64,000 nt of DNA from the IMG/VR virus record IMGVR_UViG_2880366365_000011. One strand, 5' to 3'. The position numbers are program-made. Source of the stretch: a virus. Taxonomy: Duplodnaviria > Heunggongvirae > Uroviricota > Caudoviricetes. Below are positions 21,001 to 24,000 of the stretch, piece after piece (positions within the stretch are counted from its first letter, which is position 1; each line of letters opens with the position of its first letter).

Positions 21001-24000
21001 ATGGCAAAACCGGCCACTGGATGCGGTCTATCCCATTGTTTATCTTGACTGTATTGTCCTGAAGGTTCGGCAGGACAGTCGCGTAATCAATAAATCCGTA
21101 TTCCTCGCACTGGGTATCAATATCGAAGGCCAGAAAGAGTTACTGGGTATGTGGCTGGCCGAAAACGAGGGAGCGAAGTTCTGGCTCAATGTGCTGACTG
21201 AACTAAAAAACCGCGGCCTGAACGATATTCTCATAGCCTGTGTCGACGGGCTGAAAGGCTTCCCGGACGCTATCAACACGGTGTATCCGGAAGCCCGCAT
21301 CCAGCTGTGCATCGTGCATATGGTGCGCAACAGCCTGCGGTTCGTTTCCTGGAAGGACTACAAAGCCGTCACCCGCGACCTGAAAGCCATCTACCAGGCC
21401 CCCACAGAAGAAGCAGGCCAGCAGGCGCTGGAAGCGTTCGCCAGCGCCTGGGACAGTCGCTACCCGCAGATAAGCCGGAGCTGGCAGGCAAACTGGACCA
21501 ACCTGGCGATGTTCTTCGCTTACCCGGCAGATATCCGCAAAGTCATCTACACAACCAACGCCATCGAGTCGCTGAACAGCGTAATCCGGCATGCCATCAA
21601 AAAACGCAAGGTGTTCCCGACGGATGACTCAGTGAAAAAGGTCGTGTGGCTGGCAATCCAGGCGGCTTCACAGAAATGGACGATGCCACTGCGGGACTGG
21701 CGTATGGCAATGAGCCGCTTTATTATCGAGTTCGGTGACCGCCTGGACGGTCACTTCTGAGAAAAGGCATTTACACAGAATCGTGTACAGGGTCGATTTT
21801 ACTCGTTAATTAGCGAACAAACCACTCGTCAGCAGACTCCCAGGTATCTTTCAGCGTCTCCTGAACAAAAGTTTTTGCAGAATCTTTATCGGCGGTGCGA
21901 GTAACTGAAAGGCCATCGTTGCTGGTGGATTTGATGATCACTTCTACATCGTCATAACGTTTACTGACACGTCGCAGCATTTCTTGTTGCAGGGCAGGAA
22001 CAGAACCTTTTGGCATTTTGTTGATTTTGGCTGCGGGGTATCTGTGGGGCATATATGGGACATAAAAAGGCCTCAAATAAACAGCAAAATCGAGATTAGG
22101 GATTTTTAGAAAAAATACAACCATCTGAAAAAACTTAGAAAACACCCAAAAACCCACAGAATAGTAAAAAACATCTATGAATTATGGATTTCAAGAGTCA
22201 TTCAATCTAACTAATTGATAAATAAAAAATTAACTTTTCATCGCTTCGTTATGGGGCATGGTTGGGGCAAACTCGCTTAACTGTGTATTTAACAGCGTTA
22301 CCTGCGCATTATTATTTTCTGACATCCATTTCCCGTACACCTGAAACACCATTTGCGCATCTGCATGGCCCATCTGGTTTGCAATGAATGCCGGGTTAGC
22401 TCCTGCTGTTAACGACCAGCAGGCATAAGTGTGTCTCGACTGATACGATTTGCGATGGCGGATTCCGGCACGCTTTACCGCTGCGTCCCACATCTGCCTT
22501 ATTGAGTCAACGGTAAAATGGTCGCCATAATTTTTTACTTTCGCTGACACTTCAGGTTGAAAAACAAAGGTACATTTTTGTTTCTCTGTTCTGCCGAATT
22601 CTCTGAGGTGAACATCGATGATATGCTCTTTGCTCAGTCTCGTTAGTGCCATCTGACTCCGGAGAGCGTCGATTGCGGGCTTAATAAGGTGAATCACACG
22701 ATTGGTTCCCGCCTGTGTTTTTGGTACTGTAAAACGGTCTTTTGCCAGATTTCTTCTGATTATCATTCTGCCATTGCGCAAGATGGTTGCGGTTTTTCTT
22801 CATCATTTTCTTCTTCTGTTTCCTGCTTAGCAGACAGTTCGCGGTTAACTTCTTCCAGGATATCTTTTTCCGGTGTATGTCGTGCAGCAGTGAGAGTTTC
22901 CTTGCTGGGGTTCTCGTGATCAGTCTCCGTTAAGTAGGCGTTGATATACCCCTGAAGGCGTCCCGGGTAGTGATAAAACTCAGGGTGAGCGCTCCGGATA
23001 AGTGCAAAAATAGCGGCGCGGGAATAGTCCAGAATACCCGGGGTTGCGCGAAGTGCTGCGGACCATTCTTTGAACGGACTTTCTCTTTTCAGGACGATTT
23101 CTTTTGCGCGACGATAAACGCTGCCCGGAATTTCATAAATATTAAAATCCATCGGAAGTGTGGCTGCTGCAATCTCCACATCCAGCGTATCGAAGGTGTG
23201 TACTAAATTCGGATTGCGATCGGTTTTGTTCCCGCCACCGGCATTTGCACCGGAAGCCGTACGGGTGATACGCGAAACACGATTTCCTTTCATCCACTCT
23301 TTTGTCAGCAGACCCCGATCAGTGTAGTCAGCGTCCAGGTATGCCTCGAAAAAAGCAGTTATCAGTCCCAGGTCTGAATTACCGGGATTAGGGAAAACTT
23401 TGTCAGTGTCGCGTACCAGTTTGTGAAGGTCGCGAATCTCCAGCGGGTCGAGCAGCTTTGTTTTGTGAGAAATGGCCAGGGCAGTAACAGCCGGCAGTTC
23501 TTCCGCCCGTGCTATATGTAATGCCTGAAGTTCTTCCCGTGCAACGTGCGTTACTGGTTTTTCGCTGCCGTGTTGCGCAAGCCAGCGAATGGGCAGCTCC
23601 TGACCAGAAACCGGCAGGAGCATATTCTCCTCAATCTCCGTCATGTCTTCGCCGTTGACGTTGGTATTGTCAGTACTGGCTGGTTTCTCCTGCACGGAGG
23701 GAGAGGGCGCGATAAATACCATTGTAATGCCATCTTCCCCGCCTTTTTCGTATCGGTTGCAGAATTCGGTATCAAACACGCCTTCAGGTGGAAGGTCATT
23801 CACAACGGGTAAATGGACGCGAACGGGTTTTTTAAAGTCGTCTTCATCATAATCGTTGTCATCCATTGCGGTAATGCAGCGGGAGATGGCAACAGATAAT
23901 TTTTTTGCTGTAGTCCAGTAAAAACCACCTTTAATTCCCAGACGTTTTCTGACTTTGTCATTTTTTGCTTCGCAATATAGCGCAAATTCTTCTTTATCAG

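Follow-up and report, generated by a model that had tools for sequence, protein, structure and literature searches.

Tandem lambdoid prophages in ydfJ of Escherichia coli O157:H7: a 398-bp direct repeat as the very probable shared right-end attachment arm of Sp12 and Sp11

The DNA studied here, a single 64,000-nucleotide (nt) stretch from IMG/VR virus record IMGVR_UViG_2880366365_000011 (Caudoviricetes) that is referred to below as the window, carries the right-hand part of one lambdoid prophage (A), directly followed by a second prophage (B) and by the 3' part of a transporter gene, ydfJ. The right ends of A and B consist of the same 398-bp sequence. Pairwise alignment with 200-bp flanks, a repeat scan and blastn all gave 398/398 identity between bp 21795-22192 and bp 62328-62725, and beyond both edges of the copies the similarity dropped off at once; an exact match of this length within 64 kb makes a chance origin impossible. 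The features that build the locus are as follows.

1-21794: right-hand late-gene part of prophage A (Sp12), the left end of which lies ~27 kb upstream of the window
21795-22192: repeat copy 1, right end of prophage A, with DinI-like gene, P arm and core
21810-22052, minus strand: DinI-like gene of copy 1, 80 amino acids (aa), WP_001120551.1
22193-62327: body of prophage B (Sp11), defective, with int and recE truncated, IS629 in a replication gene, a lysis-to-capsid deletion and an NleG cluster at the right end
62328-62725: repeat copy 2, right end of prophage B, with DinI-like gene, P arm and core; it is attR and adjoins the 3' part of ydfJ
62343-62585, minus strand: DinI-like gene of copy 2, identical to that of copy 1
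62717-64000, plus strand: 3' part of ydfJ, 427 codons, MHS-family MFS transporter without its first 28 codons (Pfam MFS_1)

Each copy thus holds an 80-codon DinI-like gene on the minus strand and then 140 bp of non-coding DNA, and the terminal sequence ...TATGAATTATGGATTTC was found at both repeat ends. To the right of copy 1 there is a minus-strand open reading frame (ORF) of the integrase family (bp 22230-22781), so placed that copy 1 plus the sequence to its right form an attP-like middle junction. To the right of copy 2 lies the MFS transporter ORF, whose ATG is found among the final 9 bp of the repeat and which extends to the window end. The DinI-like product matched the DinI profile PF06183 over its full length (positions 1-63/63, 64.4 bits against a cut-off of 24.2, E 1e-17). 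No LexA box upstream of this gene was obvious by eye, no formal search having been made.

Both junctions matched E. coli O157:H7 genomes at 100%, the transporter gene being annotated there as ydfJ, and the window was 99.996-100% identical to strain TW14359, apart from one extra copy of the insertion sequence (IS) IS629/IS1203 at about bp 28259-29567. Prophage A is Sp12 and prophage B is Sp11 of strain Sakai, a pair which we take to be CP-933O of EDL933. In the Sakai annotation Sp11 ends at 2204088 and Sp12 starts at 2204089, which corresponds to window position 22192/22193, the right end of copy 1; this boundary falls 38 bp past the point where integrase pseudogene ECs_2217 ends and immediately ahead of the DinI-like ECs_2218. 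As in the Sp11-Sp12 pair, two lambda-like prophages were found between ydfJ and ynfA with zero chromosomal DNA between them, and the integrase gene was broken both in B, as seen in the window, and in A, as seen in TW14359. Sp11 and Sp12 have been reported as a tandem of lambda-like prophages at ydfJ in O157:H7 (PMC9997748; PMC2608844), with disrupted integrases, repressors and recombination genes in both and no excision of either upon induction (PMC2669165). The 398-bp repeat is the known, already documented Sp11/Sp12 junction at ydfJ of E. coli O157:H7, and what is added here only refines it: the core is given at base level, the length of conserved arm DNA is measured, candidate arm sites are named, the repeat edge is traced to an IS end and the left boundary is recognised as a deletion scar.

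The core was defined by comparing attL of E. coli K-12 Qin, of strain SE11 and of O55:H7 with the middle junction, attR and uninterrupted ydfJ. The comparison revealed that TTATGGATTTC, 11 bp in length, was the sole segment common to all of them, so that the empty site, the attL of the relatives, the middle junction and attR all have an identical core. In the window it occupies the last bases of each repeat copy.

22182-22192, plus strand: core TTATGGATTTC of the middle junction, the segment common to the att junctions
62715-62725, plus strand: core TTATGGATTTC of attR; the ATG within it opens the truncated ydfJ ORF and is the codon of Met29 in full-length YdfJ

When K-12 host DNA to the left of attL and window DNA to the right of copy 2 were joined across one core, a continuous ydfJ frame was obtained (MTIEKHERSTKDLVKAAVSGWLGTALEFMDFQLYSL...), reading MTIEKHERST...LEFMDFQLYSL.... 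The rejoined 402-bp sequence was uninterrupted in 2,009 of the 5,426 complete E. coli genomes, and the matches listed were 100% identical and annotated as ydfJ next to rspB. The restored frame, intact in these 2,009 genomes, indicates that the phage interrupts ydfJ after about codon 28. An earlier sequence-only reading of the window had proposed tandem prophages at one att site in ydfJ, both ending in the same 398 bp, with the crossover core in the last ~10-20 bp and a truncated transporter ORF after copy 2. Our results agree on each of these points, the two lambdoid prophages being distinct, the repeat being the P arm plus core common to the middle and right junctions, and the core being its last 11 bp; the alignment to K-12 Qin/ydfJ suggested there as a check returned the same core, P arm and P' arm. 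The target gene was likewise named correctly, but its interruption falls after codon ~28 and not near the middle of the gene.

Comparison of the attR regions of K-12 Qin and SE11 with both repeat copies showed that conservation to the left of the core reaches only ~148 bp, core included, that is, to bp 22045. Since these relatives have unrelated DNA to the left of the ~148-bp arm, the DinI-like gene is cargo and not att DNA. The P' arm at the middle junction aligned with attL of SE11 and K-12, where the core is followed by the conserved AAGAGTCAT, a short variable stretch, a conserved TATCAA(N4)TTA that matches the integration host factor (IHF) consensus, and the 3' end of int. With the P' arm of the relatives' attL to the right of its core, the middle junction is arranged P-core-P', as an attP is.

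22045-22181, plus strand: conserved P arm of copy 1, kept in K-12 Qin, SE11 and both O157 copies, the sequence further left not being kept
62578-62714, plus strand: conserved P arm of copy 2, whose candidate arm-type pair, the same as in copy 1, lies at 62578 and 62589
22193-22270, plus strand: P' arm of prophage B, with AAGAGTCAT by the core, an IHF-like site and, within the 3' end of int, a candidate pair of arm-type motifs

The arms contain paired motifs. The P arm starts with TGGGGCAT-ATA-TGGGACAT (bp 22045-22063), its two motifs at bp 22045 and 22056 being 11 bp apart and the start codon of the DinI-like gene of copy 1 lying inside the first TGGGGCAT motif; the P' arm holds TGGGGCAT-GGT-TGGGGCAA (bp 22252-22270), with motifs at bp 22252 and 22263, again 11 bp apart, and all P and P' arm motifs are on the same strand. 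The pattern TGGGGCATNNNTGGGRCA had 3 matches in the window, all in att arms, versus none in 100 shuffles. In the junction loci of K-12, SE11, O55:H7, Sakai and other O157 strains it occurred once per att arm and at no other position (two matches where a locus covered two arms, one in each remaining locus and zero in the left-end locus of TW14359). The intact Int of the ydfJ-targeting family, represented by the 431-aa protein of SE11, has an N-terminal arm-DNA-binding domain (PF12167), and the paired TGGGGCAT-type motifs may be the arm-type sites for this domain. A putative IHF site, TATCAATTAGTTA (bp 22208-22220, minus strand), was found in the P' arm as a match to the familiar IHF consensus. 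We met no description of this ydfJ attP in the literature, no search aimed at one having been made.

It is highly probable that two different lambdoid prophages used the same site in ydfJ, at codon ~28-31, with the repeat as their right-end att arm (P arm plus the 11-bp core), and that B integrated into the attR of A; the array decayed later. Prophage A would have been resident first, as a single canonical prophage of the kind seen in O55:H7, and B would then have integrated into its attR. The product of such an event would have the order A - [A P arm - core - B P' arm - B int], which is attP-like, - B - [B P arm - core - ydfJ 3'], which is the new attR, the DinI-like gene and the P arm having been the same in both phages. 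O157:H7 descends from the O55:H7 lineage. The single arrangement nleG7-ISEic2-DinI-core-ydfJ was found in O55:H7 strains RM12579, CB9615, DEC5D and DEC5B, in strain 2013C-4465 and in O157:H7 F3113, and the right end in RM12579 was 99.92-99.95% identical to that of A; the order of events, A then B, is suggested by these sequences.

The same gene order would also be produced if B had entered by RecA-dependent homologous recombination of its DinI/P-arm module with the identical module at the right end of A. The 100% identity over 398 bp is in keeping with such an entry, since any crossover inside it gives the observed structure, and another O157 prophage pair is thought to stem from homologous recombination and not from integrase action (PMC9997748). 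The middle junction, however, is a complete P-core-P' with a conserved P' arm by the int 3' end, as predicted for Int-mediated insertion into attR, and it has been shown by experiment that an incoming Sp10 integrates next to Rac by using the resident Rac attR as attB (PMC2669165). A RecA-dependent entry is accordingly held to be unlikely, and integration of B at the core of A's attR is preferred.

Many long direct repeats at a regular spacing of ~41.7-44.2 kb link the late regions of A and B (repeat scan), which could speak for a single prophage duplicated in tandem by unequal crossing-over and then diverged. Against this, 1) the shared late genes show mosaic identity, from 70% to 100% in the same scan, 2) the replication modules differ in kind, A having a helix-turn-helix-domain protein and an ATP-binding protein and B a DnaT-like-domain protein and replication protein P, 3) the int alleles differ, and 4) the effector cargo differs, with nleG7 in A versus three other NleG genes in B, the third being only a possible one. 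The helicase loader has been described as DnaC-type in Sp12 and lambda-type in Sp11 (PMC2669165). Duplication of one prophage thus hardly deserves credence, and we keep to two different phages that used one site.

Copy 1 is bordered on its left by an IS element of the IS256 family, annotated in Sakai as ISEic2, which is itself interrupted by a second element.

18030-18497, plus strand: ISEic2 5' part
18498-20939, minus strand: ISEc8 (IS66 family) inside ISEic2, with an 8-bp target duplication (18490-18497 = 20940-20947)
20940-21794, plus strand: ISEic2 3' part, its right inverted repeat ending at 21794 (Pfam Transposase_mut)

In O55:H7 RM12579 an intact IS256-family element lies to the left of the repeat, with terminal inverted repeats at locus positions 1686-1715 and 2971-3000, and the repeat starts at 3001. 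Because the right inverted repeat of ISEic2 ends at bp 21794, the left edge of copy 1 is the outer IS end and the identity stops at 398 bp. This exact coincidence raised the question of whether the repeat could have been made by ISEic2-mediated duplication or transposition of adjacent DNA, with which the lack of a clean 8-bp target duplication flanking ISEic2, looked for and not found, would also agree. On the other side, O55:H7 has ISEic2 by the DinI arm with one prophage and one copy of the repeat, no IS lies next to copy 2, and in K-12 Qin the DNA next to the att arm, towards the prophage, is similar in sequence to that left of copy 2. It follows that the IS truncates the homology and did not create it, and an origin of the repeat through ISEic2 is regarded as extremely improbable, in favour of the att-arm origin given above. 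The DNA left of ISEic2 in A (nleG7) had no counterpart left of copy 2, homology between the two having been looked for and not found; together with the missing target duplication, this indicates that the ISEic2 insertion came with a rearrangement or replacement. It was also noticed that the DNA on the two sides of ISEic2 differs in its affinities.

The integrase genes of both prophages have decayed. That of B is fused to a fragment of recE.

22230-22781, minus strand: integrase pseudogene of B, residues ~249-431 of a 431-aa Int, a pseudogene in the TW14359 and Sakai annotations
22763-24007, minus strand: recE/ExoVIII 5' fragment fused to the B int fragment (Pfam PF06630; annotated as pseudogene)

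The B fragment was 94% identical to residues 249-427 of the SE11 Int, and its Pfam match covered profile positions 52-165/172; neither the arm-binding nor the core-binding domain is left in it, and the catalytic domain has lost its beginning. The integrase of B, which the sequence-only reading had placed after copy 1, is therefore represented there by an ORF of the right family, but only by the C-terminal 183 of 431 codons. The deletion in B removed the 5' part of int (the first ~248 codons), xis and the 3' part of recE. At the left end of A in TW14359, xis was followed by the first ~222 int codons, and these abutted codons 1-29 of rspA, beside ynfA. This fusion of rspA codon 29 to int codon ~222, at TW14359 locus position 28135/28136, was present in 296 genomes; when the junction was used as query, its left half matched ynfA-rspA and its right half matched integrase genes of other strains. 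About 3 kb had been lost here, comprising the 3' half of int, the P' arm, the core, the 5' end of ydfJ (ynfP in K-12), rspB and most of rspA. A functional integrase and excisionase are thus lacking in the element, both int genes being fragments and xis surviving only in A. We considered the N-terminal piece in A and the C-terminal piece in B as halves of a single break (222 + 183 codons being close to 431) and rejected this, since a gap of ~65 nt remains and the alleles differ; these two facts indicate two independent deletions. Decay in the O157:H7 lineage has thus taken the first ~248 codons of int with xis from B and, from A, the 3' half of int with attL, the ydfJ 5' end, rspB and most of rspA.

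The sequence-only reading had looked to the left junction of A for the core and for the 5' part of ydfJ, and had taken the absence of either as evidence against tandem prophages. Neither was present in the O157 genomes (TW14359 and the 296 genomes), so that the O157 lineage has no attL with a core at the left end. The left end was intact in O55:H7 DEC5D, with the order ynfA-rspA-rspB-attL-int(431 aa)-xis-exonuclease, and SE11 and K-12 also retain the canonical attL. As these relatives keep attL, its loss is a secondary deletion, and the literal absence of the core does not refute the tandem model. O157:H7 was without rspAB at the ydfJ-ynfA locus and O55:H7 retained them. The compound prophage has been described as inserted "at rspA" (PMC7645076); this left boundary is a deletion scar and not the integration site.

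With no intact integrase at the locus and attL gone, the repeat is an integration relic, its two 398-bp copies bracketing the 40.5-kb prophage B in direct orientation, and the site-specific recombination system at ydfJ appears to be dead. Homologous recombination across the two copies should be able to remove B cleanly. Precise loss of Sp11 was reportedly described by Chen et al. in 2013. In the O157:H7-type strains ECP19-798 and FRIK1989 the ISEic2::ISEc8 marker was followed by a single DinI-core-ydfJ copy, a structure that would be expected after, and is consistent with, a clean natural loss of Sp11. Deletions within the Sp11-Sp12 region are on record (Chen et al. 2013, as cited in PMC9997748).

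Several points weigh against the account given above. If ISEc8 had inserted before B arrived, ECP19-798 and FRIK1989 may never have carried B. The N-terminal part of the A integrase was only 93.5% identical to that of O55:H7 DEC5D, which means that simple descent from the O55 prophage does not hold for A over its full length. Because the two repeat copies are identical, Int-mediated integration at the core is indistinguishable from a RecA crossover in the shared arm. The left junction belonging to the window itself lies outside it, and the left-end account is taken from TW14359 and the 296 genomes; the arm-type and IHF sites, for their part, were assigned from sequence alone.

Other observations concern the cargo and condition of the two prophages. 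Effector genes of the NleG family (DUF1076, T3SS_NleG) lie just inside the right end of both, at bp 16016-17952 and 60040-62181 of the window. In A they comprise nleG7 and a DUF1076 gene, and in B two clear members (bp 60829-61458 and 61540-62181) plus a third possible one (bp 60040-60756). In A, an ORF annotated as portal protein contains three tandem 162-bp repeats (bp 1947-2552) that are 88-100% identical. In the region of the tail-tip J gene of B (bp 54585-55782), the repeat scan, with match length limited to <=300 nt, found exact 300-nt copies starting at bp 54585 and 55184, 599 bp apart, and this sequence is present once in A (bp 11110-11409). If the copies in B form an abutting 599-bp tandem duplication, a length which is not a multiple of three, the gene is probably broken. 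At bp ~41530-42436 the deletion in B fuses a fragment of YdfR, from the lysis region, to a fragment of the major capsid protein, and the terminase genes are gone (TW14359 annotation). Two tRNA genes lie in B at bp 37690-37942, one with anticodon CAT (Met by ARAGORN, Ile in the TW14359 annotation) and the other Arg-TCT. The IS629/IS1203 copy at bp 28259-29567 is in an O-like replication gene of B and is absent from TW14359; an IS insertion at this position was found in none of the 5,426 complete E. coli genomes.

The repeat explains the Sp11-Sp12 region as a deletion hot spot that alters pulsed-field gel electrophoresis and long-read patterns as well as NleG effector content among O157:H7 isolates. 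Its value is practical only and leaves the current understanding of prophage biology unchanged, and a base-level description of the att site of Qin-type phages is gained. More tentatively, the TGGGGCAT/TGGGRCA pairs at about -150/-130 and +60/+80 relative to the 11-bp core may be the arm-type sites of the ydfJ-targeting Int family (Qin, Sp11, Sp12), and the attP-like junction and attR may still allow Sp11 with its NleG genes to be lost and gained precisely and reversibly via RecA or a related Int acting in trans; judged from sequence, we consider this possible and rather doubtful. If true, effector content at the ydfJ locus would be switchable in natural O157 populations.

Compared with known systems, the window is closest to the Sakai Sp11-Sp12 array, with which it shares the locus, the gene order and the pseudogenes (ECs_2216 exonuclease, ECs_2217 integrase, ECs_2218 DinI-like). 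It differs in that 1) in Sakai an IS629 lies in copy 1, where ECs_2218, the dinI-like gene of Sp12, has its 3' end, whereas the window has no IS629 there, and 2) prophage B of the window carries the TW14359-type lysis-to-capsid deletion and a private IS629 in its replication gene. K-12 Qin and PP_SE11-3 of SE11 have the same core, ~148-bp P arm, P' arm and Int family, with the 5' end of ydfJ (ynfP in K-12) beside int. Unlike the tandem array, these are single prophages with attL present and no NleG effectors (also PMC2608844). Their arm is also without the DinI-like gene, of which SE11 has at most a short fragment.

The order attL - prophage - attP-like junction - prophage - attR is that of lambda tandem lysogens, and the array resembles both these and Sp10 beside Rac in this respect. 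In lambda attP the arm-type sites lie at similar distances from the core, and by analogy the candidate sites here, at about -150 to -130 and +60 to +80, with the P' sites separated from the core by an IHF-like site, would be laid out alike. In contrast, neither the core, with its 11 bp of identity, nor the arm motifs are related in sequence to their lambda counterparts, and attL is deleted and both integrases are broken here, unlike in lambda or Sp10-Rac, so that the Sp12-Sp11 array is fixed in place.

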